From contig CBDFJY010000002.1 in NCBI GenBank assembly GCA_965248705.1, positions 919,095 to 983,094 on the forward strand: a DNA stretch of 64,000 nt. Direction: 5' to 3'. This document shows, in pieces, positions 2,686 to 37,617 of the stretch. The position numbers were made by a program, and so were the translations under genes. The notes below the pieces were generated by a model. That model saw nothing but the letters and a program-made list of their open reading frames with translations. It was not told the origin of the DNA and ran no database searches. Positions within the stretch are counted from its first letter, which is position 1, and each line of letters opens with the position of its first letter. This DNA is from Acidimicrobiia bacterium (GTDB lineage: Bacteria > Actinomycetota > Acidimicrobiia > Spongiisociales > ZC4RG35).

Positions 2686-2726
2686 GCTTTCGGTAGCGAT
2701 TGCCTAGTAGGTAAAAGAGAGGCTCC

Positions 2727-2767: not shown

Positions 2768-2811
2768 GGGCCTGTAGGTAAAGGACCGCGAGGGCGAGGA
2801 AGAGAGATACA

Positions 2812-3762: not shown

Positions 3763-3775
3763 GCAAGGAGGAACC

Positions 3776-5772: not shown

Positions 5773-5859
5773 GCCGCGCCGCAGAATCAGCGTCCGCGAC
5801 GGGCGCCGCGTCGGGATTGACCATCCTGGTTTCTCCCTGCATATGAGGTTACCGGCGCG

Positions 5860-6756
5860 GTGCTGACCGGCATCGTCTTCGGGTTTATCACGGCGGTGAC
5901 GCTGGGGATCAATCATTTGCTCACTGCAGTGGTGGCCCGGCGCTTCGGCGTGCTGCGCTCCACTACCACCACTTTGAGCCTGGCCCTCTTGGTGATGGTC
6001 GCCTGGGCAATCCTCATCGACGTGCCGTTCGAAATCACCACTGACCAACTTGTTTTACTGGCCTTCTTGGGCTCCTGCGCCGGCGGGGCCTTTCTGGGCT
6101 CCTACACGGCCCTCCGACTCGGTCCGATCTCGGTGGTGAGCCCGATCGGCGCTCTGAGTGGCGCCATGACGGTGGTCTTCTCATTCTGGTTGCTGGGGGA
6201 AAGACCCGGCGCGGTGCAGTGGGCGGGGATACCGGTCGCGGTACTGGGAGCGGTGTTGGCATCCGTGGTGATCGAGCGCGGAGCCAAGATTCGACTGGTC
6301 ACCTGGGGGCCGGTCTTCGCCATGATCGGCGTGGTTGTGGGATCGCTCTCCAACGCCGGCCTGAAGATCCCCATCAGGGATGGACTCGACTCCAACCTGA
6401 CCGTCATCACCCAGCGGGTCTACACGGTGGCCTACGTCGCTCTGGTGTTGGTGATTGTCTCCCGGGTGACAGAACGGCGTCGACGAAGGGGAGATGATCC
6501 CCCGTGCCCGGTGAGAATTACCTGGAGGACAGGATGGCTGCTGGGCGTGGTGGGAGTGATCGACGCCGTCTCCTTCATATCATTCGGATACGGTTTGGCG
6601 TATGCTCCGGCTTGGCTGATTGGGATTATCTCCCAAAGCGGACGGGTAATAGCAGTGGTCGGCGGGGTGATGTTCTTCAACGAACGACTCCAATCCCTGC
6701 AGTGGACAGGCGTAGCCCTGGTAACGGTCGGCGTGGCCATGTCCATCGCCGGCTAG
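5860..6756 (+). CDS. EamA/DMT-superfamily transporter (10 TM)
   Basis: Two EamA-like halves, hydrophobic throughout. GTG start, start uncertain. Confidence 0.65.
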   Translation: MLTGIVFGFITAVTLGINHLLTAVVARRFGVLRSTTTTLSLALLVMVAWAILIDVPFEITTDQLVLLAFLGSCAGGAFLGSYTALRLGPISVVSPIGALSGAMTVVFSFWLLGERPGAVQWAGIPVAVLGAVLASVVIERGAKIRLVTWGPVFAMIGVVVGSLSNAGLKIPIRDGLDSNLTVITQRVYTVAYVALVLVIVSRVTERRRRRGDDPPCPVRITWRTGWLLGVVGVIDAVSFISFGYGLAYAPAWLIGIISQSGRVIAVVGGVMFFNERLQSLQWTGVALVTVGVAMSIAG

Positions 6757-6929
6757 GACCGCCGCTCCGAAGAGGGCGAACGCTATTTCGTCCCTCCGCC
6801 ATGTGGTCCCCTCCTCCATGACGACCCACGCCCCCGACCACTGCTGTTAGAAAAATAATGCCCTTTTGATAACAAGACACCAAGGCTAAGTATATATTTG
6901 AGGTTACAAGCGAGCGGAAGGAAGATCGA

Positions 6930-8687
6930 ATGAGAAAACTGAAATTAGCCATTGCTCTGATGGCTGTCTTGGCGTTGTTGGCTGCGGCCTGCGGCGATGG
7001 CGACGATACGGCTGCTGCGGACGCGGCGGCTGTTGCTGAAGCCGAAGCCGCTCAGGCTCAGGCTGCTGCTGCCACGGCTCAGGCTGCTGCGGACGCGGCG
7101 GCTGCGGATGCTGCCGCGGCGCAGGCCGAGTTGGAAGCCGCCCAGGCTGAACTGGCGGCCACCCAAGCTGCTGCTGAAGCCGGCGATGCGGAAGCGCAGG
7201 CGGAGTTGGCGGCTGCTGAAGCCGAAGCTGCTGCGGCTCAGGCTGCTGCGGACGCGGCTGAGGCTGTTGCGGAAGACGCGCAAATGACGCTGGAAGCGTC
7301 GATGATGGCGACGGCGCCCGAGATCCGGGAACTCGAAGTGGCTATGGGTATAGGTTTCTGTTGCGCCGACTTTGCCTATTGGCAGATTCCCTTGGAATTG
7401 GACTGGTATGACGAATTGGGTATAACCATCGTCCCCAATACGCCTACTTATTGGTATCTCACCAATAGCACCGAGACCAACGCCAAATTGCAGCGTCAAG
7501 AGCTTCACATGGCCAATGGCTGGGTGCCCTCACTGTTCATAGCTCTGGAGACCTTCGCTCAGGAGATTCCAGTGATTCACTTCGCGGATATCTTTATCGG
7601 CTATGCGGTCCTGGTATCGCCCGACAGCGATTCGAAGACTGCCCTGGAGTTCGTGGAGGAAGGGATGTCCTTCTCGGAGGCGGCCACGGCGGCCGTGGAG
7701 CAGTTGGTAGGCGAGGACATCTACATTACGCCGAATAGCACTACACAGGCCCAGTATGCGAACGCGTTTTTCGCCTATCTGCCCGAGTGGTGGGAGGATG
7801 TGCAGGAAGACATTTCCGTAATTGACGAGGAAGGCAACCCCTTGGTGTTGCTGGGCCGCGACGGCCAGCCACTCCTGGATGATGACGGCAACGTTCAGCC
7901 GATTCGCATTACGACCAACGACTGGCGCAATTATGCCAATCCGAAGTACGTCGAGGACCCCATTATCGTGGAGCTTTCGGCTGTTCCGGGCCGGATCGAT
8001 TACGCCATGCCCTTCCAGGCTCCAACCCTGGTGCAGATGATTCGTAACGGCTGGGATCCGCTGATCAACTTCGCGATGATGTTCGAGCACGACGCGTTCT
8101 CCCAGCAGACGGCGATCGCCAGCTCCACCACAGGCGGCACCGGCCTGATTGCCAACCGCGAGTGGGTGGAGGCGAACAAGGACGCGGTCTACCGGATACT
8201 CTCCGTTGCCCACCGGACCTTCGCTTTGCTCGATGATCCCGAGACCCAGCGAATTGGGTGGGAGATCGAGGCCAATCTCATCAACGAGAAGCGCCAGTTG
8301 ACCATGGATCCCGAGGACATCGGAGTCATATGGGAACAGATCGACCCCTCCTTTAACTGGGAGGACCAGGAGGCGCTTTGGGACTTGAACCTGCCCAGCT
8401 ACCACCCAGAGACGGTGTTCAGGAACCAGGTCGAGGAGCGTAAGGCCAAGGGAGAATTGTCTGCGACCTATGACACGCAGGCAGGACTCGAAAGGTTCTT
8501 GTTGGCCCAGGAGCTCTATTACGACATGAAGGGCATGCAGGAACGTTCCGACGAGCTCTTCGCCAGGGCTGAAGGAATGGATCTTTCCGATAGCCAGGCT
8601 GCTTTGGTCGAGCAGGCGCGCCACTGGTACGACATCTATAACTTCTACGACGCTGAGCGCTGGCTTGAGGCTGCCCTTATTGGGTAG
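6930..8687 (+). CDS. Substrate-binding lipoprotein of ABC cassette 2; diverged paralogue of 943..2685
   Basis: Same signal/lipobox and low-complexity linker as copy 1. The globular domain is strongly diverged in its N-terminal part (GIGFCCADFAYWQIPLELDWYDELGITIVPNTPTYWY...). Confidence 0.6.
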   Translation: MRKLKLAIALMAVLALLAAACGDGDDTAAADAAAVAEAEAAQAQAAAATAQAAADAAAADAAAAQAELEAAQAELAATQAAAEAGDAEAQAELAAAEAEAAAAQAAADAAEAVAEDAQMTLEASMMATAPEIRELEVAMGIGFCCADFAYWQIPLELDWYDELGITIVPNTPTYWYLTNSTETNAKLQRQELHMANGWVPSLFIALETFAQEIPVIHFADIFIGYAVLVSPDSDSKTALEFVEEGMSFSEAATAAVEQLVGEDIYITPNSTTQAQYANAFFAYLPEWWEDVQEDISVIDEEGNPLVLLGRDGQPLLDDDGNVQPIRITTNDWRNYANPKYVEDPIIVELSAVPGRIDYAMPFQAPTLVQMIRNGWDPLINFAMMFEHDAFSQQTAIASSTTGGTGLIANREWVEANKDAVYRILSVAHRTFALLDDPETQRIGWEIEANLINEKRQLTMDPEDIGVIWEQIDPSFNWEDQEALWDLNLPSYHPETVFRNQVEERKAKGELSATYDTQAGLERFLLAQELYYDMKGMQERSDELFARAEGMDLSDSQAALVEQARHWYDIYNFYDAERWLEAALIG

Positions 8688-8728
8688 GCTTCCGGTAGCG
8701 ATTGCCTAGTAGGTAAAAGAGAGGCTCC

Positions 8729-8767
8729 GAGCGCGGGCAGGACGGGTTTGTCGTCCTGCCCCGCGCT
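8729..8767 (+). promoter_or_regulatory. Intercistronic stem-loop, copy 2
   Basis: GAGCGCGGGCAGGACG...CGTCCTGCCCCGCGCT. A C>A change on the 5' arm is matched by G>T on the 3' arm relative to copy 1. Confidence 0.5.
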
Positions 8768-8812
8768 TCGGCCTGTAGGTAAAGGACCGCGAGGGCGAGG
8801 AAGAGAGATACA

Positions 8813-9763
8813 GTGACCACCACGGACACCGATGTTCTTGATGTGAGAGCGGCGGCGCACCGCGCCAGACGGCGAAGCAAGATTGCCTATTTCATCTATC
8901 TGACAGTCGGGTTAATTCTCTTTCTGCTGATTTGGCAGTTGATCGCCTCGCCCTTCTCGCCCCTTTTCTATCTCATACCGCCGCCCCTCGATGCCGTCAG
9001 GCATTTCGGGGAGAACCTGTTCTTCAGTCAGAGGATGTTGGAGCGGTATGTTCATGCTTGTCCGGATCTGTTGGATGAGTTGGAGTTGACGGGGGGAAGG
9101 ATGTTCGATCTTCCCGATTACTGTTTTGGGTATGTCCTGCATTTGGTGCGGACCACCCGCAATATCATGATTGCGGTTACGCTGGGGACGGTGTTCGGTT
9201 TGTCGGTGGGGCTGAGCAGTCTGGTGTTCCCGAAGATCGCGGATGTGGTGACACCGATCGCCGGTTTTTTCGGGACTACCCCGATTTTCATAGCGGCGCC
9301 TTTTTTTGTGATCTGGTTCGGGATCGAGTATCCCCTGATGACCACCGTGGGGGTGGTTGTCTTTTACACCACCCTCCTCATGTATTTCTTCAGCCGCCGG
9401 GCGGCGGACAACATACCGGTGGGTGTTATAGAATCAGCTCTTACTCTGGGAGGAGACCGCCGCACTATTTTCCGGTGGGTGTATTTGCCGGGGACGATAC
9501 CCGAGATCGCGGGCGGTTTTCGTATCGCATTGGCCGGCGCTTGGGGGCTGGGTACGTTGGTGGAGGTGCTGGGACCCCAGATGGGAGGAGGGTTTCTTAT
9601 TCGTATGTGGAGCTTCGCCATGGGCCTTGTGGAGGGGCCGTCCGCGGTGGTCTCTCTGATTCTTTTCTTCGGTGTGTTGGCTGTGGTAGTCGACGGTATC
9701 CTGGTGCTGTTTATCCGTTTCATCACCAAGTGGTCCGAGGCCGGTCGCCGGCTGGGTTTGTAG
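8813..9763 (+). CDS. ABC transporter permease 1, copy 2
   Basis: ~95% identical to 2812..3762. Confidence 0.75.
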   Translation: MTTTDTDVLDVRAAAHRARRRSKIAYFIYLTVGLILFLLIWQLIASPFSPLFYLIPPPLDAVRHFGENLFFSQRMLERYVHACPDLLDELELTGGRMFDLPDYCFGYVLHLVRTTRNIMIAVTLGTVFGLSVGLSSLVFPKIADVVTPIAGFFGTTPIFIAAPFFVIWFGIEYPLMTTVGVVVFYTTLLMYFFSRRAADNIPVGVIESALTLGGDRRTIFRWVYLPGTIPEIAGGFRIALAGAWGLGTLVEVLGPQMGGGFLIRMWSFAMGLVEGPSAVVSLILFFGVLAVVVDGILVLFIRFITKWSEAGRRLGL

Positions 9764-9776
9764 GCAAGGAGGAACC

Positions 9777-10553
9777 ATGTCAACTGTTGTGAACTTTGAG
9801 AACCTGTGGTGTGTATTCGAGCACCGATCCGGGCAATTGGTGCATGCCCTTGAAGACGTCACTTTCCAGGTCGATCCCGGGGAGTTTGTGTGCGTGGTGG
9901 GGAGGTCCGGGCATGGTAAGACCACCCTGCTGAGGGTGTTGGCCGGGCTTCAGCCTCCCACCGCCGGCTATGCCAAGCTGGGCGACACCGCGGTGACGGG
10001 GCCGGGTAGCGACCGGGCCATGGTTTTTCAGCAGGACACGGTGTTCCCCTGGTTGCATGTCCGCGAGAATGTTGAGTTTGGCCTCAGGGCCAACAAGGTT
10101 CCGGATAAGGAGCGGAACGAGATCGCCGATTACTGGTTGGAGGCGGTGGGATTGGAGGATTTCGCCGACTCTTGGCCGCGGGAGCTTTCTGGGGGTATGA
10201 GAAAGCGGGTGGCCTTGGCGGCGGCGATGGCGGTGGGCTCGGATGTTGTCCTTATGGATGAGCCTTTTGGGTCTGTTGATTATTTCACGCGCCGCAATCT
10301 TCATGAGGTTCTTTTGAACCTGTGGTTTGAGACCCGCAAGACCATCTTTTTTGTCACCCATGACATTGAGGAGGCGCTGATTCTTGCTGACCGGGTGATC
10401 CTCTTGGCCGAGGGCAAGCTGGTGGACGATATCGCGGTTTCTCTCCCTCGTCCTCGTAACGAGGATGTCCGGGCTACCCCCGAGGCGGTGAGTGTGTTCA
10501 AGCTGATCCTCGCGCATCTGGGCATCACCGAAGAGGAGGCGACGAAGGCTTGA
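9777..10553 (+). CDS. ABC transporter ATP-binding protein, copy 2 (identical to copy 1)
   Basis: Protein and nucleotide sequence identical to 3776..4552. Confidence 0.9.
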   Translation: MSTVVNFENLWCVFEHRSGQLVHALEDVTFQVDPGEFVCVVGRSGHGKTTLLRVLAGLQPPTAGYAKLGDTAVTGPGSDRAMVFQQDTVFPWLHVRENVEFGLRANKVPDKERNEIADYWLEAVGLEDFADSWPRELSGGMRKRVALAAAMAVGSDVVLMDEPFGSVDYFTRRNLHEVLLNLWFETRKTIFFVTHDIEEALILADRVILLAEGKLVDDIAVSLPRPRNEDVRATPEAVSVFKLILAHLGITEEEATKA

Positions 10554-11770
10554 ACCAGCCTGCCCGCTTCCGAAGCCTTTATTGGATTGGAGGGCTGATC
10601 TGGGCTGTCTTTCTGGCTCCTTGGTTGCTCGTTCAACTGCCTGAAAGTCTTCCCCTCGTTACCTGGACATATATCGATGGCGTGATCGTCGTGACGTGGT
10701 CGCTCATCCTTTCTTGGCTGGTTTTCTTGCTGGTCTGGCCGGTTGTGTTCCGCCCGAGTGGGGTCAAGAACCGCCTGGTCAAGATGGGACAGGGGATAGC
10801 GGCGGGGCCGCCCCTGCTGTTGGCCGGTATGCGCCGCAGCCCGCTCTTCTTCGTCTCCTGGGCGGTGTTGCTGGTAGCGTGGCAACTGGCGTCTTACCTG
10901 GCGCCTCCGGGAGCCCTCGAGCACCCCCTGGTCCCCGGATGGGACTACGTGTTCGGCGACACCTTCTTCAGAATGTCCGGAGACTGGAGCGTCCGCGGGT
11001 TTGACCTGGAGTTTGTGGTCCTCGATGTCGTGGAACTGGCACCCCTTCCCATCTATGGCGGGGAGGCGACTTGGCCGGCTGTGTTCCTCGCCATCGCTTT
11101 CCACTCCGGCACGACCCTTTTCAGGCTGTTGTGTGGCATGGCGGTCGGTATGAGCCTCGGTCTCCTGACCGGTCTGGCCATTCCCTATTGGCCGCCGCTG
11201 CGCAAGTCCGCTTGGGCGCCTATGAACTTTCTGCGGATGATCCCCCTCCTGGCGGCGATACCCTGGTTGCAGTTTGCCGTGGGCTCCACCCTGTTTGGTA
11301 TCACCATCTATATTGGATTCGGGGTGTGGACGACGATGGTGGTGGCCACCATGAACTCGGTGGCCAACGTACCTGACCGGTACATCGAAAGCGCCCGTAC
11401 CCTGGGCGCGTCCCGGCCGTGGACCTATTACAAGGTGATAGTGCCGGGATCGATTCCCGAGTTGCGCACCGCCATGTTGCTCTCCATGGGAGGGAGCTGG
11501 TCGCTGGCCATTGCCGCCGAGTTCCTGGGTTTCCCCACCGGGCTCGGGTACATGGCCAACGTGGCGGTGCAGGAAACCAACACCGCCCGGCTGGTGATAG
11601 TGGCGTTTATCGTGGCTTTTTATTCTCTCGCCACCTTCTTCTTGCTCAACGAGGGATTCAAAAAGGCCGTTAGTTGGATGCCACAGCGCACCACCGGCAC
11701 GACGGATATCAGCAAGGTGGCCGGGGCGGCAGGAGCGGCGGGTCGCGCGGAAACCCTCGAGGGCGGATAA
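10550..11770 (+). CDS. ABC transporter permease 2, copy 2
   Basis: Paralogue of 4549..5772; same architecture. Confidence 0.75.
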   Translation: MNQPARFRSLYWIGGLIWAVFLAPWLLVQLPESLPLVTWTYIDGVIVVTWSLILSWLVFLLVWPVVFRPSGVKNRLVKMGQGIAAGPPLLLAGMRRSPLFFVSWAVLLVAWQLASYLAPPGALEHPLVPGWDYVFGDTFFRMSGDWSVRGFDLEFVVLDVVELAPLPIYGGEATWPAVFLAIAFHSGTTLFRLLCGMAVGMSLGLLTGLAIPYWPPLRKSAWAPMNFLRMIPLLAAIPWLQFAVGSTLFGITIYIGFGVWTTMVVATMNSVANVPDRYIESARTLGASRPWTYYKVIVPGSIPELRTAMLLSMGGSWSLAIAAEFLGFPTGLGYMANVAVQETNTARLVIVAFIVAFYSLATFFLLNEGFKKAVSWMPQRTTGTTDISKVAGAAGAAGRAETLEGG

Positions 11771-11858
11771 GGCCCGCGCCGCGGAATAACGTCCGCGACA
11801 GGTGCCGCGTCGGGATTGACCATCCTGGGTTCTTTCCGTATAAGAAGCTGTCAACCAG

Positions 11859-12761
11859 TTGCTGACCGGCATCATCTTCGGGTTTATCACCGCGGTGACG
11901 CTGGGCATCAACCAGCTGCTCACTGCAGTGGTGGCCCGGCGCTTCGGCGTGCTGCGCTCCACTGCCATCACTGTGACCCTTGCCCTCTTGGTGATGGTCG
12001 CCTGGGCAATCATCATTCAGGTGCCGCTCGAGATCACCGCCGACCATGTGATCCTCTTGGTCCTGTTGGGTTCCTGTGTCGGCGGGACCTTTCTGTGTGG
12101 GTACACGGCTCTCCGACTCGGTCCGATCTCGGTGGTGAGCCCGATCGGCGCTCTGGGAGGCGCCATGACAGTGGTTTACTCGTTCTGGTTGTTGGGGGAA
12201 AGACCCGGCGCGGTGCAGTGGGCGGGAATACCGGTCGCGGTACTGGGAGCAGTGTTGGCATCCCTGGTGATCGAACGCGGGACCAAGATTCGACTGGTCA
12301 CTTTGGGGCCGGTCTTCGCCTTGATCGGCGTCCTGGTCGGGTCGATCTCCAACGCCGGCCTGAAGATCCCCATCAGGGATGGGGTGGATTCTAACCTCAC
12401 CGTCATCACCCAACGGGTCTTCACGGTGGCTGTCGTTCTTTTGGTGTTGGTAATTGTCCCCAGGGTGACAGAACGTCGACGAAGAAGAGACGCCCGGCAC
12501 GGGGGGAGAGATCCGGTGAAGATCACCTGGAGGACAGGATGGCTGCTGGGCTTGGTGGGATTGATCGACGCCGTCTCCTTCATATCATTCGGATACGGCC
12601 TGGCGTACGCACCGGCCTGGCTAATCGGAATTATCTCCCAAAGCGGACGGGTAATAGCCGTGATCGGCGGGGTGATGTTCTTCAACGAACGACTCCACCA
12701 ACTGCAATGGACAGGCGTAGCCTTGGTAATGGTCGGGGTGGCAATGTCCATCGCCGGCTAG
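11859..12761 (+). CDS. EamA/DMT transporter, copy 2
   Basis: Paralogue of 5860..6756, TTG start. Confidence 0.65.
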   Translation: MLTGIIFGFITAVTLGINQLLTAVVARRFGVLRSTAITVTLALLVMVAWAIIIQVPLEITADHVILLVLLGSCVGGTFLCGYTALRLGPISVVSPIGALGGAMTVVYSFWLLGERPGAVQWAGIPVAVLGAVLASLVIERGTKIRLVTLGPVFALIGVLVGSISNAGLKIPIRDGVDSNLTVITQRVFTVAVVLLVLVIVPRVTERRRRRDARHGGRDPVKITWRTGWLLGLVGLIDAVSFISFGYGLAYAPAWLIGIISQSGRVIAVIGGVMFFNERLHQLQWTGVALVMVGVAMSIAG

Positions 12762-12997
12762 CACCGCGGCCCGAGGAGGTACTCGTTGAGGGATTCAAGA
12801 AGGTCGTTGGTCGGATGCCACAATGCACGGGAAAGTGAACAGATGTCAGCAGGGTGGCCGGGGCGGAAGGAGCAGGAGGCCGCGGTGAAACTCTCGACGA
12901 CGGATAGGGCTTCGGACGCGGAATCGGCGTTCGCGGTCGAGCGGCCAATCGGGATTGGTCAGCCTGGCTTTTCCCTGTATGTGAAGCTGTCAACCAG

Positions 12998-13903
12998 GTG
13001 TTGACCGGCATCATCTTCGGGTTTATCACCGCGGTGACGCTGGGGATCAACCGCCTGCTCACTGCTGTGGTGGTACGGCGTTTCGGCGTGCTGCGCTCTG
13101 TCTCCGTCACTGTGACTCTGGCTTGCTTTTTGATGATGGCCTGGGCGGCGCTGATCGGTGTGCGAGTCGAGATGAATGCCGACCACCTGATCCTCCTGGT
13201 CCTGTTGGGCTCCTGTGTCGGCGGGGCCTTTCTGTGCGGTTACATGGCTCTCCGGGTCGGTCCGATCTCGGTGGTGAGTCCGATCGGCGCTCTGGGAGGC
13301 GCCATGACGGTGGTCTACTCCTTTTGGCTGCTGGGAGAGAGACCCGGCGCGGTGCAGTGGGCGGGAATACCGGTCGCGGTACTGGGAGCGGTGTTGGCGT
13401 CCCTGGTTATCCAGCGGGGGACCAAGATTCGACTGGTCACTTTGGGGCCGGTCTTTGCCTTGACCGGCGTGCTGGTGGGATCGATCTCCAACGCCGGCCT
13501 GAAGATCCCCATAAGGGATGGGGTGGATTCCAACCTCACCGTCATCACCCAACGGGTCTTCACGGTGGCTGTCGTCCTCTTGGTGTTTGTGATCTTCTCC
13601 CGGGTGATAGAACAACGACGACGAAGGGGAGATCCCCGGTACGAGGGGAGCCACCCGGTGAAGATCACCTGGCGGACGGGATGGCTGCTGGGTTTGGTGG
13701 GACTGATCGACGGCGCCTCCTTCATATCCTTCGGATATGCTCTGGCGCATGCACCTGCTTGGCTGATCTCGGTTATCTCCCAAACCGGACGGGTTATAGC
13801 CGTGATCGGCGGGGTGATGTTCTTCAACGAACGACTCCACAGCCTGCAGTGGACAGGCGTAGCTCTAATAAGCGTTGGAGTGGTGATGTCCATCGTCGGT
13901 TAG
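12998..13903 (+). CDS. EamA/DMT transporter, extra tandem copy (2b)
   Basis: Paralogue of 11859..12761. Preceded by a degenerate copy of the permease-2 3' tail. Confidence 0.65.
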   Translation: MLTGIIFGFITAVTLGINRLLTAVVVRRFGVLRSVSVTVTLACFLMMAWAALIGVRVEMNADHLILLVLLGSCVGGAFLCGYMALRVGPISVVSPIGALGGAMTVVYSFWLLGERPGAVQWAGIPVAVLGAVLASLVIQRGTKIRLVTLGPVFALTGVLVGSISNAGLKIPIRDGVDSNLTVITQRVFTVAVVLLVFVIFSRVIEQRRRRGDPRYEGSHPVKITWRTGWLLGLVGLIDGASFISFGYALAHAPAWLISVISQTGRVIAVIGGVMFFNERLHSLQWTGVALISVGVVMSIVG

Positions 13904-13931
13904 CACTGCCGCTAGCCGTTGGTTATGAAGA

Positions 13932-14140
13932 GCTGTGAAAGAAATCGTGGGTGGAGGATTGATTCTTGTCCCACGGGGGTTCACATTGAGATGTACCAAA
14001 CACCGAGACGGTCTGTCTTGGCATCGTTCGGACTTCGTCAAGGGATCAAACTGACCTCTTGCACGCCCTGTTCCGGGCTGGGCGGACGCGTGTTCGAACC
14101 GTGGCAAGGTGGTAGCGGGTCACTGCCGCTAGGCAGTGGG
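13932..14140. repeat. Conserved ~200-nt non-coding element, copy A (candidate structured RNA or miniature repeat element)
   Basis: ~75-80% nucleotide identity to 19354..19560 and 22451..22640. Internal hairpins with apparent compensatory substitutions. Terminal CACTGCC-GCTA-GGCAGTG hairpin. Confidence 0.5.
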
Positions 14141-14245
14141 CTTGCCTGAGGGCCCGGCAGGGAAGTGGTTTTTGCGCCTTTCCGCGGTGATTGGCAACAG
14201 AACCCGCCTCCGTGGGCTGGGGCCAGAGCTGGGTGGAGTCGGTGC

Positions 14246-15085
14246 TCAGTTCTCGGGGAAGGTGTACTGGAATACCCCGCCGGTGCGGATCATCTCGGCA
14301 GCGATGGCGTCGGCGTGGTCGATGAATCGGCGGAGCATGGCGTTGATTTGGTCCGGCACGTCTTGGAGTGCGCGATGTCCGGCGCCGACCGGTCTGCCGA
14401 TCACCACTTGGGGGCACAGCTCGCGGAGCAGGTCCAAGTCGAGGCGGGGTTGGCCGCAGTCAATGTACAGATACGGGCATTTCACTCCGGCCAGCACCGG
14501 CGCGGGATCGAAGCTGCTCATTCCATGCCAGCCGTTGAGGATCACGTGGTCGGGAACTTGCGCGAGCCGCGCGGCCATGGTTCCTACCCGGGAGGGGTCG
14601 TCGGTGGGCAGATAGGAGGCGCGAAGAAATCCGCGCAATGTCTCCCGGAAGGGGAGATCCTTTTGCATGAGGTGATCGAAGGGTCCGTGATGGTACTTCT
14701 GCCATCCGGGGATGTTGCTGGGCGAGTCGAGGCTGGCGATGGCGCTCACCAGTTCGGGATGGCGGGCGGCGGCCGAGATGATCACCTGTCCTCCCATGCT
14801 CTGGCCCACCAGCACGGGCCGATTCAGTTCCAGTTGGCGGATGAGTTCGGCCACGTCATCGCCGTGTTGGGCCATGGTGTAGGTCTCATCGGGCTTGTCG
14901 CTTTCCCCGTGGCCGCGCAGATCGACCGCCACGCACCGGTGATTGGGGGAGAAGTACTCCTCCTGGAAGCCGAAGCCTTCCCGATTGCCGAAGCCCCCGT
15001 GGATGAAAATGATGGCCGGATCGCCGGAGCCTAATTCGTGGTACGCAATGCGGTCGCCGTCGGGGGTAGTAATCCATTCAGTCAT
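14246..15085 (-). CDS. Alpha/beta-fold hydrolase, paralogue 1
   Basis: HG oxyanion motif IFIHGGFG, nucleophile elbow GQSMGG, C-terminal catalytic His in GAGH; 279 aa. Confidence 0.8.
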   Translation of the reverse strand: MTEWITTPDGDRIAYHELGSGDPAIIFIHGGFGNREGFGFQEEYFSPNHRCVAVDLRGHGESDKPDETYTMAQHGDDVAELIRQLELNRPVLVGQSMGGQVIISAAARHPELVSAIASLDSPSNIPGWQKYHHGPFDHLMQKDLPFRETLRGFLRASYLPTDDPSRVGTMAARLAQVPDHVILNGWHGMSSFDPAPVLAGVKCPYLYIDCGQPRLDLDLLRELCPQVVIGRPVGAGHRALQDVPDQINAMLRRFIDHADAIAAEMIRTGGVFQYTFPEN

Positions 15086-15388
15086 GGGACCCAGCCTAGT
15101 TTGTCCTATTTCTGGGTTGTAGCGACACTCGGGTCAATACCGGGTTAGTGGGGTTCGGCGGTGCATCCTGTTGCTTGATCACCACGTCGAGCAGAAAGGA
15201 AGCACCGCCGTGGGTAATGATGATGCCTTGTATCGCTTTAGGTTGGGGGTATTTGCTCTAGCAGAAGAGTTGGGAATCGTGCGTGTGCTGCATAACCGAA
15301 TGATGGGAATCCATCATTCTACGTTCATCGCTGGGCTTGAGTATATTTTGGAGCGTCAAGGTCGGCTGAATTGCTGGCTTAGCCGCTT

Positions 15389-17002
15389 TTGGTCGACAGC
15401 CGTTGGCCCGACGAGCAAGCGAGCGGAAGGAAAGCGCAAACGAGGAAATTCATATCAGCTATTTCTCTGGTGGCTATCTTGGCGTTGTTGGCTGCGGCCT
15501 GCGGCGACGGCGCGGCGGATACGGCTGCTGCGGACGCGGCTGTTGCTCAGGCCGAAGCCGCTGAGGCTGAGGCTGCTGCCAAGGAAGCCGACGAGGCCCA
15601 GAAGGCTCTGGAAGGGTCGATGATGGTGGAGGCCCCCGAGATTCGGGAAGCCGAGGTTGCGATGGGTTTCAACGCCTGTTGTGCCGATATGGCTTTTTGG
15701 CAGATTCCCGTCGAGTTGGGCTGGTGGGATGATTTGAATATCACCATCGTTCCCAATTCGTCCACCTATTACTATTTCGCCGCCGGCGCCGAGGCCATCG
15801 CCTGGTTGCGGAGCGGTGAAGGCGCCGTGGCCCCTGGGTGGGTGCCGGGACTGTTCGGGTCGTTGGAGACCTTTGCTCAGGAAGTCCCGCCGATTTTCTT
15901 CGCGGACATCTATGTCGGCTATGCGGTCCTGGTTGCGCCGGATAGTCCCTCCAAGACTGTGCTTGAGTTCGTGGAGGAAGGGATGTCTTTCCCGGAAGCC
16001 GCCTTGGCGGCCGTCCAGCAGTTGGTAGGGGCGGATATTTACATTTCGCCCAGCACCCAGCAGGCTCAGTACATGGATGCGTTCTTCGCTTATCTGCCCG
16101 AGTGGTGGGAGGCTTATCAGGAGGACATTCCCGCTTTGGACGAGGATGGCAACCCTCTGGTGTTGTTGGGCCGCGACGGCGAGCCACTTCTGGACGAGGA
16201 CGGCAGCGTTCAGCCGATTCGGATCACGACCAACGACTGGCGTAACTATGCCAACCCGCAGTACGTCCATGACCCCACGATCCTGGCGCTTTCGGCTGTT
16301 CCGGGCCGGATCGAGTACGCCATGCCTTATAGCGCTCCGACCCTGGTGCAGATGATGCGCAACGGTTGGGATCCGCTGATCAACTTCGGGATGATGTTCG
16401 AGAATGATCCGGTCTCCCAGCAGACGGCGATCGCCAACTCCACTGTCGGCGGTATAGGCCTGCTAGCGAACCGCGAATGGGTCAATAACAACAAGGACCT
16501 GGCCTACAGGGTTCTCTCTGCCGCCTATCGTACCTTTGAGTTCCTCGATGATCCTGAGACCCAGTACCAGGGGTGGGAGATCGAGGCCAATCTCATCAAC
16601 GAGAAGCGCCAGTTGAGCATGGAGCCTGAGGACATCGGGATCATCTGGTCGACCATCGATCCCTCCTTTAACTGGGAGGAGCAGGCGGCGCTGTGGGACT
16701 TGAACCTCCCGAGCTACCACCCCGAGATAGTGTTCGTCACTCAGATCGAGAAGCTGAAGGCCAAGGGGGTGTTGTCCGAGGACTATGACACGCAGGCCGG
16801 GCTGAAAGAGTTCTTGTTGGCCCAGGACCTCTACTATGAGATGAAGGAATTCGAGACGCGCTCCGACGCACTATTCGAGAGAGCTTCGGGAAGAGATCTT
16901 TCCCCGGCCCAGGCCGCTTTAATCGCCCAGGCGCAGTTCCACTATGACATCTATAACTTCTACGACGCTCTCCGCTTCTTGGAGGCTGCCCTTATCGGGT
17001 AG
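15389..17002 (+). CDS. Substrate-binding lipoprotein of ABC cassette 3
   Basis: Paralogue of copy 1. The ancestral ATG is mutated to ACG, so an upstream ATG at 15389 gives a longer signal n-region. Shorter low-complexity linker. Confidence 0.5.
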   Translation: MVDSRWPDEQASGRKAQTRKFISAISLVAILALLAAACGDGAADTAAADAAVAQAEAAEAEAAAKEADEAQKALEGSMMVEAPEIREAEVAMGFNACCADMAFWQIPVELGWWDDLNITIVPNSSTYYYFAAGAEAIAWLRSGEGAVAPGWVPGLFGSLETFAQEVPPIFFADIYVGYAVLVAPDSPSKTVLEFVEEGMSFPEAALAAVQQLVGADIYISPSTQQAQYMDAFFAYLPEWWEAYQEDIPALDEDGNPLVLLGRDGEPLLDEDGSVQPIRITTNDWRNYANPQYVHDPTILALSAVPGRIEYAMPYSAPTLVQMMRNGWDPLINFGMMFENDPVSQQTAIANSTVGGIGLLANREWVNNNKDLAYRVLSAAYRTFEFLDDPETQYQGWEIEANLINEKRQLSMEPEDIGIIWSTIDPSFNWEEQAALWDLNLPSYHPEIVFVTQIEKLKAKGVLSEDYDTQAGLKEFLLAQDLYYEMKEFETRSDALFERASGRDLSPAQAALIAQAQFHYDIYNFYDALRFLEAALIG

Positions 17003-17135
17003 GCTTCCGGTTCGATTGCCTAGTGGCAAAAAAAAGCGCCGCTCCGGCCTGTAAGCAGGACTGCGAGGAAGAGAGAGCGGCGGCGCATCGCCAGAAACGG
17101 CGCCGCCAAATCACCGAGGAGGAGGCGACGAAAGC

Positions 17136-18353
17136 TTGAACCAACCAGCCCTCTTCCGACGTCTGTTCTGGGTTGGGTGGCTGATCTGGGCTGTCCTGAT
17201 TCCGTGGTTGCTTATTCAGTTGCCGGAAAGCCTTCCTTTCGTTACCTGGACGCATGGTGAGGGTGTGATCAACGTCACGTGGTCTTATATCGTTTCCGGG
17301 TTGGTGTTGTTCTGGGCTTGGCCGGTTGTGTTCCGCACGACCCGGTTCAAGGACCGTCTGGTCAGGGCGGGGCGGGGGATAGCGGCGGGGCCGCCGATGC
17401 TGTGGGCTGGTATGCGCCGTAGCCCGCTCTTCTTCGTCTCTTGGGTGGTGTTGCTGGTGGCGTGGCAGGTGGCGTCTTATGTTGCGCCTCCGGGAATTCT
17501 CGAGCATCCCCTGGTTCCCGGATGGGACTACGTGTTCGGTGACACCTTCTTCGGATTGTCCGGGTACTGGACCGTCCGCGTGTTGGACCTTGGGTTCGCG
17601 ACCTTCCATCTCGACGGACTGGCGCCGCTTCCCATCTATGGTGGGGAGGAGACCTGGCCGGCCGTGTTCCTCGCAATCGCTTATCACTCCGGTACGACCC
17701 TTTTCAGGCTGTTGTGTGGCATGGTGGTCGGCGTGACGCTCGGTCTCCTGACCGGTCTGGGCCTTCCCTACTGGCCGGCGGTGCGCCAGACCGCGTGGGC
17801 GCCCATGAACTTCCTGCGGATGATCCCCCTCCTAGTGGCGATTCCCTGGTTGCAGTTCGCCGTGGGCTCCAGCCTCACTGGTATCACCCTCTATATCGCC
17901 TTCGGGGTGTGGACGACGCTGGTGGTGGCCACCATGAATGCGGTAGCCAACGTGCCCGACCGGTACATCGAAAGCGCCCGTACCCTGGGCGCCTCCCGGC
18001 CGCGCACCTATTTCAAAGTGATAGTGCCGGGGTCGATTCCAGAACTGCGCACCGCCATGCTGCTCGCCATGGGAGGGAGCTGGTCGCTGGCGATCGCCGC
18101 CGAGTTCCTGGGTTTCTCCGCCGGGCTGGGGTACATGGCCAACGGGGCGGTGCAGGAAACCAACACCGCCCGGCTGTTGATAGTGGCGTTCATCGTGGCT
18201 CTTTATTCTCTCACGACTTTCTTCTTGCTCAACGAGGGATTCAAAAAGGCCGTTAGCTGGATGCCCCAGCGTACCACCAGGGGGCCGGACATCGCTAAGG
18301 TGGCCGGGGCGGCAGGAGCGGCAGGCCCCGTCGAAACCCTGGAAGACAGATAG
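17136..18353 (+). CDS. ABC transporter permease 2, copy 3
   Basis: Paralogue of 4549..5772. Permease 1 and the ATPase are missing upstream. Confidence 0.7.
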   Translation: MNQPALFRRLFWVGWLIWAVLIPWLLIQLPESLPFVTWTHGEGVINVTWSYIVSGLVLFWAWPVVFRTTRFKDRLVRAGRGIAAGPPMLWAGMRRSPLFFVSWVVLLVAWQVASYVAPPGILEHPLVPGWDYVFGDTFFGLSGYWTVRVLDLGFATFHLDGLAPLPIYGGEETWPAVFLAIAYHSGTTLFRLLCGMVVGVTLGLLTGLGLPYWPAVRQTAWAPMNFLRMIPLLVAIPWLQFAVGSSLTGITLYIAFGVWTTLVVATMNAVANVPDRYIESARTLGASRPRTYFKVIVPGSIPELRTAMLLAMGGSWSLAIAAEFLGFSAGLGYMANGAVQETNTARLLIVAFIVALYSLTTFFLLNEGFKKAVSWMPQRTTRGPDIAKVAGAAGAAGPVETLEDR

Positions 18354-18428
18354 GACCCGCTTGCAGTTGGGCGGTGCGTCGGGACCTAGGCGCCATGGCC
18401 TCTTTCCGTTTATGAAGCTGTCCACGGG

Positions 18429-19325
18429 GTGCTGACCGGCGTCATCTTCGGGTTTATAACCGCGGTGACGCTGGGGATCAACAGTCTGCTCACTGCCGTA
18501 GTGGCGCGGCGCTTCGGCGTGCTGCGCTCTGCTGCCGCCACGCTGACGCTGGCTCTCTTGGTGATGGTCGCCTGGGCAATCCTCATCGACGTGCCGCTCG
18601 AGATGACCACCGACCATCTGATCCTCTTGACCTTTCTGGGCACCTGCGTCGGCGCCTCCTTTCTGGGCTCCTATATGGCCCTCCGACTGGGCCCGATCTC
18701 CGTGGTAACACCGATCGGCTCTCTGGGGACCGCGATGACAGTGGTCTACTCCTTTTGGCTGCTGGGGGAAAGACCCGGTGCCTTGCAGTGGGCGGGAATA
18801 CCGATCGCCGTGCTGGGAGCAGTACTGGTATCGCTTGTAATCAAACGCGGGACCAGGGTTCGACTGGTCACCTGGGGACCGGTCTTCGCGTTGATCGGCG
18901 TATTCGTAGGATCGATCTCCAACGCCGGCCTGAAGATCCCCATCAGGGACGGAGTCGACTCCAACCTGACCGTAATCACCCAACGGGTCTTCACAGTGGC
19001 CTTCGTCCTGTTGGCGTTGGTGGTTTTCTCCCGGCTGGGATTACGGCGTCGGCGAGAGGGAGATGACCCTCAGTACCCGATGAGGATCACCTGGAAGACA
19101 GGATGGCTCTTGGGCCTGGTGGGACTGATCGACGGCGTCTCTTTCATATCATTCGGATACGGATTGGCCTACGCACCGGCCTGGTTGATCGCGATCATCT
19201 CCCAAAGCGGAAAGGTGATAGCCGTAATCGGCGGGGTGATCTTCTTCAAGGAACGACTCCACCGACTTCAGTGGACCGGCGTGGGGCTGATAATGGTCGG
19301 CGTGATGATGTCCCTCGTCGGCTAA
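18429..19325 (+). CDS. EamA/DMT transporter, copy 3
   Basis: Paralogue of 5860..6756, GTG start. Confidence 0.65.
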   Translation: MLTGVIFGFITAVTLGINSLLTAVVARRFGVLRSAAATLTLALLVMVAWAILIDVPLEMTTDHLILLTFLGTCVGASFLGSYMALRLGPISVVTPIGSLGTAMTVVYSFWLLGERPGALQWAGIPIAVLGAVLVSLVIKRGTRVRLVTWGPVFALIGVFVGSISNAGLKIPIRDGVDSNLTVITQRVFTVAFVLLALVVFSRLGLRRRREGDDPQYPMRITWKTGWLLGLVGLIDGVSFISFGYGLAYAPAWLIAIISQSGKVIAVIGGVIFFKERLHRLQWTGVGLIMVGVMMSLVG

Positions 19326-19353
19326 TACCGCCTTTTCCATCCGCGGTGGGAGG

Positions 19354-19560
19354 TTGTGAAAGGAACCGCATTGGGAGGGTTGATTCTGTCTCATGGAGGG
19401 TTCATAGTGATATGAGCCAAACACCGAAGCGGTCTGCTCCGGCGTCGTTCGGACCTCGTAGAGGGATCAAATAACCCTGCTGAATGCTCTGTACCTGGCT
19501 GGACCGAGTGTGTTCGACCCGTGGCAAGGTGGTGGCGGGCCACTGCCGCAAGGCAGTGGG
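19354..19560. repeat. Conserved ~200-nt non-coding element, copy B
   Basis: Homologous to 13932..14140. Terminal hairpin CACTGCC-GCAA-GGCAGTG has a GNRA loop on the plus strand. Confidence 0.5.
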
Positions 19561-19660
19561 ATCGCCTGTGGACCCAGAGGCAACTTTTCGCGACTTCTCA
19601 CAAAGATTGGCGATAGTTTCTGAATCGTGAGCTGGGGGCGGCGGTGGTTGGAGTTGGTCC

Positions 19661-20500
19661 TCAGTTCCCGGGAAAGGTGTATTGGAATACTCCGCCGGTA
19701 CGGATCATCTCGGCGGCGATGGCGTCGGCGTGTTCGATGAATCGGCGCAGCATGGCGTTGATCTGGTCCGGCACTACCTGGAGGGCTCCATGTCCGGCGC
19801 CGACCGGTTTGCCGAACACCACTTGGGGGCACAGTTCGCGGAGCAGGTCCAGGTCGATGCGAGGCTGTCCGCAGTCAACATATAGATAAGGGCACTCTAT
19901 GCCTGCCAGTATCGGCGCGGGATCGAAGGCGCTCAACCCGTGCCAGTCGCTGAGGATCACGTGGTCGGGAACTTGGGCCAGCCGCTCGGCTGTGTTCTTG
20001 GCGCGGGTCGGGTCGTCGGTGGGCAGGTGGGAGGCGCTGAGAAACCCGACCAGCGTGTCCCGGAAGGGTAGGTCCTTTTGCATCAGGTGATCGAAGGGTC
20101 CGTGATGGTACGCGGTCCACCCGGGGATGTTGCTGGGAGAGTCCAGGCTGGCGATCGCTCCGACGAGGTGGGGATGGCGGGCGGCGGCGGAGATGATTAC
20201 CTGTCCTCCCATGCTCTGGCCGACCAGCACCGGCCGGTTCAGTTCCAGTTGGCGGATGAGTTCGGCAACATCATCGCCGTGCTGTTCCATGGTGTAGAGA
20301 TGATCGGGCTTGTCGCTTTCCCCGTGGCCGCGCAGATCGACCGCGATGCAGCGGTGATTGGGGGAGAAGTACTCCTCCTGGAGGCCGAATCCTTCCCGAT
20401 TGCCGAAGCCGCCGTGGATAAGGATGATGGCCGGATCGCCTGCACCCACCTCGTGGTATGCAATGCGGACGCCGTCGGAGGTGGTGATCCATTCGGTCAT
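19661..20500 (-). CDS. Alpha/beta-fold hydrolase, paralogue 2
   Basis: Same motifs as paralogue 1. Confidence 0.8.
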   Translation of the reverse strand: MTEWITTSDGVRIAYHEVGAGDPAIILIHGGFGNREGFGLQEEYFSPNHRCIAVDLRGHGESDKPDHLYTMEQHGDDVAELIRQLELNRPVLVGQSMGGQVIISAAARHPHLVGAIASLDSPSNIPGWTAYHHGPFDHLMQKDLPFRDTLVGFLSASHLPTDDPTRAKNTAERLAQVPDHVILSDWHGLSAFDPAPILAGIECPYLYVDCGQPRIDLDLLRELCPQVVFGKPVGAGHGALQVVPDQINAMLRRFIEHADAIAAEMIRTGGVFQYTFPGN

Positions 20501-20573
20501 GTGCCGTAGCGTAGTTGTCGGGGTCTCATAGACGGCTAGGGACAGGTCACTATGACGGCTTCGGGTGCAATCC

Positions 20574-21413
20574 CTATGTGGAGGGGAAGGTGTATTGGAA
20601 GACGCCGCCGGTGCGGATCATCTCGGCGGCGATGGCGTCGGCGTGTTCGATGAACCGCCGAAGCATGGCGTTGATTTGGTCCGGCACCACCCGGAGGGCC
20701 CCATGTCCGGCGCCGACCGGTTTGCCGACCACCACTTGGGGGCACAGTTCGCGGAGCAAGTCCAGATCGACGCGCGGCTGTCCGCAGTCGACGTACAGAT
20801 AAGGGCACTTCACCCCAGCCAGCAACGGCGCGGGATCAAAGGCCATCATCCCCTGCCAGCCGTTGAGGATCACATGGTCGTCAAGCCGGGCCAGCCGCGC
20901 CGCTGTGTTCTTGGCGCGGGTCGGGTCGTCGGTGGGCAGATGGGCGGCGCTGAGGAAGAGTTCCAGCGCCTTCCGGAAGTCTTGGTCCTTTCGCATGAGG
21001 TGATCGAAGGGTCCGTGATGGTAGGCGTGCCATCCGGGGATGTTGCTGGGCGAGTCGAGGCTGGCGATGGCGCCCACCAGTTCGGGATGGCGGGCGGCGG
21101 CCGAGATGATCACCTGTCCCCCCATGCTTTGTCCCACGAGGACTGGCCGATCCAGATCCAGTTGGCGGATAAGTTCGGCCACATCGTCGCCGTGTTGTTC
21201 CATGGTGTAGAGCTCATCGGGTTTGTCGCTTTCGCCGTGCCCGCGCAGATCGACGGCGATGCAGCGGTGATTGGGGGAGAAGTACTCCTCCTGGAGGCCG
21301 AAGCCTCCCCGATCGCCGAAGCCGCCGTGGATAAGGATGATGGCCGGGTCGCCAGCGCCCAGTTCGTGGTAGGCGATGCGGACGTCATCGGAGGTGGTGA
21401 TCCATTCAGTCAT
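20574..21413 (-). CDS. Alpha/beta-fold hydrolase, paralogue 3
   Basis: Same motifs (GQSMGG, GAGH). Confidence 0.8.
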   Translation of the reverse strand: MTEWITTSDDVRIAYHELGAGDPAIILIHGGFGDRGGFGLQEEYFSPNHRCIAVDLRGHGESDKPDELYTMEQHGDDVAELIRQLDLDRPVLVGQSMGGQVIISAAARHPELVGAIASLDSPSNIPGWHAYHHGPFDHLMRKDQDFRKALELFLSAAHLPTDDPTRAKNTAARLARLDDHVILNGWQGMMAFDPAPLLAGVKCPYLYVDCGQPRVDLDLLRELCPQVVVGKPVGAGHGALRVVPDQINAMLRRFIEHADAIAAEMIRTGGVFQYTFPST

Positions 21414-21542
21414 GTCACTCAGCTTAGGTTGTCAGCCCGGCAGGGGAGGGCGAAACGGCGCCAGGAAATTGGTGCTCCAGTTGGCGTTATACGCCCGTCC
21501 GGCGTTCGCCGGTCCCAAGTGAGCGGTGTTCGCCGCGGGTCC

Positions 21543-22385
21543 TTATGTGGAGGGGAAGGTGTATTGGAATACTCCGCCGGTGCGGATCATTTCGGCGGCG
21601 ATGCCGTCGGCGTGTTCGACGAATCGGCGGAGCATGGCGTTGATCTGGTCCGGCACGTCCTGGAGGGCCCGATGTCCAGCGCCGACCGGCTTTCCGATCA
21701 CCACCTGGGGGCACAGCTCACGGAGCAGATCCAGGTCGAGATCCGGCTGACCGCAGTCGATGTACAGGTAGGGACACTTCACCCCGCGCAGCGTGGGTGT
21801 GGGGTCGTAATCGGCCTTGCCCCGCCAAGTGTTGAGGATCAACTTGTCGGAAACTTCGGCGAGCCGTGCGGCCATGGTGCCCACCCGGGAGGGGTCGTCG
21901 GTAGGCAGATAGGCGGCTTTGAGGAACGTGTAGAGTGTTTCGCGGATAGGGGGGCCGTCCTTGCTCATCAGGGGTTGGTAGGGACCGTGAAAACGCTGGT
22001 GCCACCCGGGGATGTTGCTGGGCGAGTCCAAGCTGACGATCGCCCCCACCAGTTCGGAGTGGCGGGCGGCGGCAGCGATCACCACCTGTCCGCCCATGCT
22101 CTGGCCCACCAGCACGGGCCGATGCAGCCCCAGGTGGCGGATGAGATCTGCCACGTCATCCCCGTGTTTGTCCATGGTGTAGGGCTCATCGGGCTTGGCG
22201 CTGTCGCCGTGGCCACGCAGGTCGACCGACACGCACCGGTGATTGGGCGAGAAGTACTCCTCCTGGAAGCCGAATCCTCCCCGCTTGCCGTAAGCGCCGT
22301 GGATGAAGAGGATGGCCGGGTCGCCGGCGCCCACCTCGTGGTAGGCAATGCGCACCCCGTCGGAGGTGGTAATCCATTCAGTCAT
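21543..22385 (-). CDS. Alpha/beta-fold hydrolase, paralogue 4
   Basis: Start set at the conserved MTEWITT (ATG 22385). The longer reported ORF is an upstream over-extension. Confidence 0.75.
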   Translation of the reverse strand: MTEWITTSDGVRIAYHEVGAGDPAILFIHGAYGKRGGFGFQEEYFSPNHRCVSVDLRGHGDSAKPDEPYTMDKHGDDVADLIRHLGLHRPVLVGQSMGGQVVIAAAARHSELVGAIVSLDSPSNIPGWHQRFHGPYQPLMSKDGPPIRETLYTFLKAAYLPTDDPSRVGTMAARLAEVSDKLILNTWRGKADYDPTPTLRGVKCPYLYIDCGQPDLDLDLLRELCPQVVIGKPVGAGHRALQDVPDQINAMLRRFVEHADGIAAEMIRTGGVFQYTFPST

Positions 22386-22450
22386 GTCACTGAGCTTAGG
22401 GTGTCGTGTCGCGGTGTGGCACCAACACTTTTCGTCTGTTTTTGTCAAAG

Positions 22451-22640
22451 GTTGTGAAACAAATCGCTGTTGGGGGGTTGATTCTGTTCCCCGGGGAGTT
22501 CATATTGATACAAGCCAAACACCAAGACGGTCCGCCCAGGCGTCGTTCGGGCCGCGTCGAGGGATCAAATGTCCTTATTCAACCAGCCCTGTTCCGGGCT
22601 GGACGAGTCTGTTCGACCCATGGCAAGGTGGTGGTGGGGG
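22451..22640. repeat. Conserved ~200-nt non-coding element, copy C
   Basis: Homologous to copies A and B. Here it lies between two hydrolase genes rather than after an EamA gene. Confidence 0.45.
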
Positions 22641-22870
22641 AGGGCCCAGGGAAGCTTTTTCGCGACTTTTCTGCCATGATCAACGACTGCCGTTCGCATA
22701 ACCAGGCACCCCAGACCACCCACCCGGTCGCTACATCTCAGAAACAACTGAGCTTAGGGTGTCCGCCCGGGACGAGGGTGAACGGCGACAGCTTATTGGT
22801 GCCTGAGTTGGCGTGAAGCACCGGAGTGCCGGTCGCCGGGTCGAACGGATCGGCGTTGCCGCGCGGGTTC

Positions 22871-23710: not shown

Positions 23711-23840
23711 GTCACCGAGCTTAGGGTGTCAGCCTGGAAGGGAAGGTGAGCGGCTGCGCCATGTTGATCTCCGAGTCGGCGTGAAACACTGGACTGCCGG
23801 ATGGCCGGTCCGAACGAACGGCGTTCGGCGCTGGGGCCTC

Positions 23841-37615: not shown

Positions 37616-37617
37616 GA

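Follow-up and report, generated by a model that had tools for sequence, protein, structure and literature searches.

Positions 745-24710 of the window (the whole 64-kb stretch of Acidimicrobiia DNA that was analysed) are extraordinarily amplified, carrying three ABC-transporter operons, four EamA genes and seven tandem or nearby hydrolase genes (279-289 aa). The ABC-transporter operon encodes a putative binding protein of ~600 aa without annotation, two permeases and an ATPase, and is present as a 5.9-kb direct repeat (920-6775 vs 6907-12779, 89.7% identity) plus a shorter third copy. An eighth hydrolase gene (53189-54037) is more divergent, with about 71% nt identity to the array, and adjoins a tRNA gene (53065-53135, - strand), and a DUF222-HNH endonuclease gene (54226-55290) is located near both. 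A long ORF at 37462-39537 (+ strand) gave a Pfam match to NAD-GH (PF10712), a family regarded as spurious and derived from the strand opposite dnaK. The genuine gene in this place is probably 37618-39489 on the - strand, adjoining dnaJ (35859-36980).

Position and gene context of the element copies

Three copies of an intergenic element, namely, A, B and C, were located in the amplified region (Table 1). The pairwise BLAST identities were 77.6% over 223 nt (A-B), 75.7% over 189 nt (A-C) and 78.5% over 191 nt (B-C), with E-values of 1e-31 to 1e-44, and a BLAST search of the whole 64-kb window revealed no fourth stretch resembling them. The three-copy repeat described in the initial annotation was thereby confirmed, and the sequence blocks quoted there were all found with minor differences per copy. 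Profile searches extended the homology slightly beyond the 3' limits given there, through a T-run and CGCGAC. The spacing between element and genes is constant: the EamA stop is ~25 nt away, and the hydrolase ATG 61-65 nt.

The gene context was also as reported: A and B are each flanked by an EamA gene on the + strand and a convergent hydrolase gene on the - strand, and C is located between two - strand hydrolase genes. No + strand gene is located 3' of any copy, as a 5' leader or riboswitch would require, in agreement with the earlier remark that the element is not a simple 5' leader; on the - strand, only C-type copies precede a gene. The - strand leaders of three hydrolase paralogues (22386-22410, 21414-21440 and 23711-23735) have in common a conserved stretch of ~20 nt directly before the start codon, GACACCCTAAGCTnnGTGAC-ATG, with no obvious Shine-Dalgarno motif.

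Table 1 Element copies, + strand motifs and neighbouring genes in the window
Feature	Position	Strand	Remarks
Copy A	13928-14181	+	25 nt past EamA stop (13903); 65 nt to stop (14246) of convergent hydrolase; BLAST, nhmmer
Copy B	19350-19598	+	25 nt past EamA stop (19325); convergent hydrolase 19661-20500 on the right; BLAST, nhmmer
Copy C	22447-22670	+	61 nt to ATG of hydrolase 21543-22385 (divergent); 200 nt to stop of hydrolase 22871-23710 (convergent); both hydrolases on - strand; BLAST, nhmmer
EamA/DMT transporter gene	12998-13903	+	Pfam PF00892; last gene of an ABC-transporter operon copy
EamA paralogue of 12998-13903	18429-19325	+	78% aa identity
Alpha/beta hydrolase, 279 aa	14246-15085	-	Right of copy A; Pfam PF00561, PF12697; paralogues 19661-20500 (right of B) and 22871-23710 (right of C), 78-86% nt identity
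Hydrolase, 280 aa	21543-22385	-	Start codon faces copy C
A-rich 5' block TGKGAAAnAAAyC	22453-22465, 13934-13946, 19355-19367	+	Left edge of homology
Promoter-like TTGATT-17 nt-CATATT	22478-22506; counterparts 13959-13987, 19380-19408	+	
Inverted repeat CGGTCCG-N13-CGGGCCG (hairpin)	22528-22554, 14009-14035, 19430-19456	+	
Hairpin AGGG[ATCAAAnnn]CCYY	22560-22577, 14041-14058, 19462-19478	+	Holds invariant 8-mer AGGGATCA
G-rich block ACCCATGGCAAGGTGGTGGTGGGGG	22616-22640, 14097-14119, 19517-19539	+	Possible CCCRU/RYGGG hairpin
28-nt insertion with hairpin CACTGCC-GCTA-GGCAGTG	14120-14147 (A); 19540-19567 (B)	+	Loop GCAA in B
3' end GGGCCC...T-run...CGCGAC	22641-22666	+	
T-run and GCG motifs	14169-14178, 19585-19594, 22656-22666	+	

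Occurrence in related genomes

A three-block pattern scan covering 185,579 species genomes matched only two Acidimicrobiia MAGs, with near-identical orthologues of A and B, and gave one match per related genome, including a relative with a complete 2.79-Mb chromosome. Fetching the DNA around EamA homologues yielded 13 further distinct copies (L016-L019, L031-L038 and L041 are among the source loci), and the resulting alignment contained 16 distinct sequences, that is, the three window copies and the 13 from closely related Acidimicrobiia metagenome genomes. All 16 copies belong to genomes with an EamA-B orthologue at least 83% identical, and all lie at the same two junction types. The element was found in none of the loci fetched around EamA homologues at 59-79% identity (L020-L030). 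Pattern scans of metagenomes and viral contigs gave chance matches only, as checked by BLAST and nhmmer, a BLAST search against plasmids and phages gave no match, and a literature search returned nothing on the EamA/hydrolase element locus. The related genomes appear to derive from marine and sponge metagenomes, as judged by sample names only. The element is a lineage-specific non-coding module found in one clade of uncultured Acidimicrobiia and, given that no significant RNA-structure signal was obtained (see below), at most a candidate small-RNA gene.

The sampled genomes carry one to three copies each. The EamA-B/hydrolase junction is empty in L016-18 and L033-37, where a spacer of only 33-69 nt is found; the junction can therefore exist without the element, which is not simply the EamA terminator. 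A clean 1.37-kb deletion at 4307/4308 of L002 (window 13961/15332) has removed window positions 13962-15331, and with them the neighbouring hydrolase gene and the greater part of copy A, and the B copies of L031 and L032 have an internal deletion of ~130 nt (L031 15908-16028). The stand-alone C-type copy, with no + strand gene upstream, is present in every locus that covers this part of the hydrolase array.

The flanking genes of L016, L017 and L018 are 99.5-100% identical, yet the intergenic C-type junction differs by 15-30%. This junction (L016 7600-8030) is a two-haplotype mosaic with the crossover inside the element, in which the left half of L017 is identical to that of L018 and the right half to that of L016. 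The mosaic points to allele exchange by recombination, with the conserved ends of the hydrolase genes as putative homology arms, and the C-type junction looks like a hotspot of recombination or gene conversion between hydrolase paralogues. Within the swapped segments, as counted from the alignment, the core differs by 17-20% and the adjacent spacers by 44-47%, a further indication of some constraint on the core.

Origin of the copies

A and B lie within one duplicated block of 2.3 kb comprising EamA, element and hydrolase (12788-15101 vs 18234-20516, 79% identity). C is part of the tandem hydrolase array and has the element and the right-hand hydrolase in common with A and B. Because the copies share duplicated flanks, the repetition reflects segmental duplication and not transposition: the three window copies arose through co-duplication with the adjacent EamA and hydrolase genes, both segmental and tandem.

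Insertion of a miniature mobile repeat (MITE or REP-like) on three occasions is hardly credible, a miniature repeat element being one of the two readings offered in the initial annotation. The ends of the element, GTTGTGAAA and TTTCGCGAC, form an imperfect inverted repeat in which 7/9 positions match, and the 12-nt direct repeat CACTGCCGCTAG lies around copy A. However, this direct repeat is specific to copy A, all 16 of the 16 copies occupy two syntenic junctions at fixed gene distances with flanks that are duplicated too, and no scattered copies or target-site duplication were found. Moreover, the complete 2.79-Mb chromosome of the relative has a single pattern match, the metagenome, viral, plasmid and phage collections hold no homologues, and the window has no transposase or integrase. 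The syntenic copies, the poor terminal repeat and the lack of a target-site duplication effectively refute the mobile reading. The 12-nt repeat is an exact one (13904-13915 and 14121-14132) that brackets most of copy A; its second copy makes up the loop and the left arm of the hairpin in the 28-nt insertion, and the repeat is absent around B and C.

Coding potential

The substitutions between copies are even over the codon phases (17/15/16, 12/14/18 and 12/12/17), and so are the variable columns of the alignment (15/27, 17/27 and 15/26). In contrast, 73% of codon positions 1 and 2 and 25.5% of positions 3 are invariant in the flanking hydrolases. Many indels of the element are not multiples of three and shift the frame, and copy B contains a stop and a frameshift, which bears out the original description of a conserved non-coding element.

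A small protein gene or a pseudogene is the least plausible reading, proposed for one + strand frame that stays open for ~80 codons in most copies. Frame +1 lacks a stop over 74-81 codons in 11/13 of the copies examined; in A and B a different frame remains open, for 75 and 63 codons, respectively. By our own estimate, an open frame of this length is expected by chance in about one in three sequences of such G-rich composition, and the stop-free + strand frame (window 22440-22680 and orthologues) probably results from the G-rich, stop-poor composition. Against a protein product, codon periodicity is absent, the C-terminal half of the longest open frame falls in different frames in different copies, and the translations gave no Pfam match at E<=10 and no homologue among 5.8 billion proteins. 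The small-protein reading is effectively refuted by six-frame translation, codon-phase counts, Pfam and the protein-database search. Gene callers sometimes place spurious ORFs on the element (e.g. L031 19009-19260).

Sequence conservation

Across 11 copies, 34.5% of the element columns are invariant and the mean pairwise identity is 0.725; the four-fold sites of the adjacent hydrolases in the same 11 copies show 22.6% and 0.63. At the nine C-type loci, the element reaches an identity of 0.75 with 40% invariant columns vs 0.63 in the 5' spacer and 0.53 in the 3' spacer, and the spacers touching the element have 6-19% invariant columns. The invariant columns are clustered, with a longest run of 8 nt (permutation p = 0.02). 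For the two closest orthologues, window C and L031 C, identity is 80% in the element and 84% at four-fold sites; between the window and L031, coding DNA is 94-96% and the other spacers 51-88% identical. As judged from these alignments, the element is under mild purifying selection, and the constraint is modest.

These values bear directly on the main rival reading, in our view somewhat less likely than the leading one, namely, that the element is a passive passenger, that is, intergenic DNA co-duplicated with the flanking paralogues, with no product of its own and with generic transcription signals or leftovers. Its conserved patches might then serve, for example, to terminate transcription of the two convergent units, EamA and hydrolase. 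The common duplication of A and B is consistent with such a passenger, as are an identity of the element that approaches the value for the adjoining coding DNA and exceeds the four-fold sites by only ~0.1, a divergence in the nearest orthologue pair about like that of other spacers, the loss or internal deletion of copies with no obvious consequence, and the lack of a structure or covariation signal (see below). However, the element is conserved above the spacers that touch it, its core differs less than the spacers between near-identical strains, its invariant columns cluster, and a C-type copy has been retained in every sampled genome with the hydrolase array.

Motifs of the + strand

Homology begins ~25 nt before TTGA, in an A-rich block whose T, G, G, A, A and A are invariant in 16/16 copies. 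It is followed by a sigma-70-like arrangement, TTGAnn-17/18-CAnnnT, in all 16 copies; variability is highest between the two hexamers, and the -10-like hexamer starts with C, never T. Downstream, the G-rich run TGGCAAGGTGGTGGnGGGGGAGGG is constant on the + strand, and the unpaired constant blocks CCAAACACC and AGGGATCAA lie beside short helices.

A T-run of 4-7 nt was found in 15/16 copies (three T in L037C). In most copies, a GC hairpin with a stem of 3-6 bp lies directly 5' of the T-run, such as GGGCCC-GAAAGG-GGGTTC-T6 and GGG(AG)CCC-GAA-GGG(GA)CCCC-T7; copy C has no good GC hairpin at this place. The hairpin and T-run read as a terminator on the + strand only, and the - strand presents an A-run followed by a hairpin. 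A consensus promoter and terminator scan flagged neither signal at these sites, with the promoter motif below threshold, and both are therefore treated as putative. Beyond the T-run, the spacer up to the hydrolase stop contains a 7-bp hairpin with palindromic arms (CCGATCG ... CGATCGG) in L033 (14880-14934), L041 (14805-14856) and L037 (13980-14031), which may be the hydrolase terminator.

The opposite strand was considered in the same way. It is improbable, in our judgement, that the element is a cis-acting part of the - strand hydrolase operon, that is, an intercistronic or 3'-UTR element for RNA processing or stability, or an operator or promoter region of the downstream 280-aa hydrolase. 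Such an element would act at the C junction, and A and B would be displaced relics. The element is located downstream of a 279-aa hydrolase on the - strand in all window copies and in every orthologue, the C-type junction is always retained while A- and B-type copies come and go, and the - strand A-run and hairpin are not terminator-like, so that operon read-through is plausible. However, no promoter-like motif was found on the - strand, its folding signal is absent (z +0.2 to +0.5), and the G-U variants of the best hairpin become C.A mismatches there. The A-type copies are also not decaying and have the best hairpin and T-run structures.

Folding and covariation

A scan of the 64-kb window with Rfam 15 at the gathering threshold matched only the tRNA at 53065-53135, and at E<=10 over 13000-24000 no match overlapped any copy. 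The earlier failure to assign the element to RNase P, tmRNA, SRP, 6S or a riboswitch was thus upheld.

The initial annotation had described the element as apparently structured and had named non-significant covariation as an outcome that would refute it. The covariation was non-significant: in the 11- and 16-sequence alignments, each measure was reached in 65 to 491 of 500 shuffles, with power limited by 16 sequences of 76% mean column identity. This null result holds for the RNAalifold consensus, the five local hairpins and the long-range helix. With three sequences, RNAalifold gave -65.9 kcal/mol on the + strand vs -41.4 kcal/mol on the - strand, and with 11 sequences the + strand was also favoured (column-shuffle z = -2.56). 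With 16 sequences, the consensus changed and z was -0.47 on the + strand and +0.22 on the - strand; all sub-regions had |z| < 1.6. The consensus structures from 3, 10, 11 and 16 sequences were inconsistent with one another, the single-sequence MFE z-scores (-2.5 to +1.2) were centred on 0 on both strands, and the folding energy of the + strand is inflated because this strand is rich in G and U. The apparent structure was therefore not sustained.

The individual hairpins were examined in the 16 copies. The hairpin proposed to co-vary (CCC-ACG-GGG, CTC-ATG-GAG and CCCC-GGGG) occupies the stretch where the element varies most and has not been preserved in the 13 further copies, for example in CCCACCCGT, CACACCGGC, CCCAGTGGC and CGTGGGGAG, and CCCCGGGG is too short for any loop. 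The proposed GGTC...GACC pairing does exist, within the hairpin CGGTCYG-N13/14-CGGRCY in which 96.8% of cells are paired, but its changes are one-sided only: 5/6 pairs vary one-sidedly, mostly from G-C to G-U, and of the six variant states, five are G-U on the + strand and the sixth is C.A. Over all five local hairpins, 10 pairs have G-U variants vs 6 with A.C, and the strand asymmetry is thus weak. The hairpin AGGG[ATCAAnnnn]CCYY is 92% paired with one-sided changes only; it and the CGGTCYG/CGGRCY hairpin are the robust features. The CCCRU/RYGGG hairpin is 87% paired, with one pair showing G-C, A-U and many A.C. As for the 7-bp hairpin said to have a GNRA-type loop, GCTA is not GNRA, and the hairpin belongs to the 28-nt insertion that is present only in window A and B and their near-identical orthologues and absent from C and the 13 others; the L002 orthologue has two uncompensated stem changes.

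Three further candidates were rejected. The closing helix GTTGKGAAA / TTTYGCGAC was set aside because a GTG-to-GGG change on its 5' side is uncompensated on the 3' side. The long-range helix GGGTTGA / TCRACCC is 88% paired, shows no covariation and competes with a local hairpin. An attC integron site was considered for GTTGAC / GTTCAAC; the motif order is reversed and no integrase was found. An RNAduplex search of the whole window for trans targets was dominated by long interior loops, and only antisense self-matches stood out.

A large structured RNA of a new class, riboswitch- or ribozyme-like and ~230 nt long, which the closing helix would delimit, is accordingly very unlikely. The three- and 11-sequence foldings favour the + strand, and the closing helix is 89.5% paired with two pairs changed on both sides. 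However, the signal is gone with 16 sequences, covariation is not above shuffles, the GTG-to-GGG change stands uncompensated, the folding energy is inflated by composition, and the + strand has no downstream gene to regulate.

Discussion

The leading reading, which we hold tentatively and at somewhat less than even confidence, is that the element is a small autonomous + strand transcription unit and a candidate sRNA, in line with the independent small-RNA gene considered in the initial annotation. Its boundaries are sharp and match a promoter-to-terminator unit, the C copy is retained, the copy number is variable and the constraint is mild, so that an sRNA unit fits best. This candidate reading draws on the promoter-like and terminator-like motifs and not on structure. 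If the motifs act as promoter and terminator, a discrete RNA would be made. In the proposed unit, the A-rich upstream block precedes the sigma-70-like promoter (TTGAnn, 17-18 nt, CAnnnT), and the RNA body of ~150 nt (~175-180 nt in A and B with the 28-nt hairpin insertion) would contain two conserved hairpins, both short, and be G-rich towards its 3' end. The GC hairpin and U-run would stop + strand transcription ahead of the convergent hydrolase gene, thereby shielding it. The target of the RNA might be the transporter/hydrolase locus, where it could, for example, be antisense to the - strand hydrolase operon or insulate against it. Since the duplications, recombination at the conserved ends of the hydrolase paralogues appears to have exchanged some copies and to have truncated or eliminated others.

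A bolder extension of the candidate sRNA reading, to which we give little credence, would be a new Acidimicrobiia small RNA of ~150 nt on the + strand, maintained at one or more copies per genome beside an amplified transporter/hydrolase array. Its alleles would recombine between strains much faster than the flanking genes change, and it could regulate this array, or insulate it as an antisense RNA, in a manner that differs from strain to strain. If transcribed, the element would join the very small number of candidate regulatory RNAs known from uncultured Acidimicrobiia, linked to a heavily amplified uptake-and-hydrolysis locus. It would be at most a narrowly distributed addition to a familiar RNA class. 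If the element is only a co-duplicated spacer, the lesson is one of method: repeats between paralogous genes inherit their similarity from duplication, and three copies may seem to co-vary by chance, a signal that was removed here by adding orthologues.

Comparison with known systems

Like riboswitches and cis-acting leaders, the element has conserved unpaired blocks by short helices; it differs from them in that it is never upstream of a + strand gene, shows no covariation and has no Rfam match. REP, BIME and ERIC repeats and MITEs are likewise repeated, hairpin-bearing intergenic sequences of 100-300 nt, often between convergent genes, whereas the element has one to three syntenic copies, none dispersed, and a poor terminal inverted repeat. 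Co-amplified intergenic spacers of paralogous operon arrays also resemble it: their boundaries are common with those of the duplicated genes, their identity tracks that of the flanks, and recombination between conserved gene ends creates, deletes and shuffles copies. The element differs from such spacers in being conserved above its neighbours and in one junction being retained in all sampled genomes. Compared with 6C, 6S and Ms1, it matches none in Rfam, and it has neither the C-rich loops of 6C nor the long closing helix of 6S, nor covariation support. With intergenic or 3'-UTR-type bacterial sRNA genes in general, which have a promoter of their own and an intrinsic terminator (e.g. actinobacterial 6C and Ms1), it has in common a short non-coding unit with a promoter-like motif and, in most copies, a hairpin/U-run, together with lineage specificity, a position between or after protein genes and a variable copy number.
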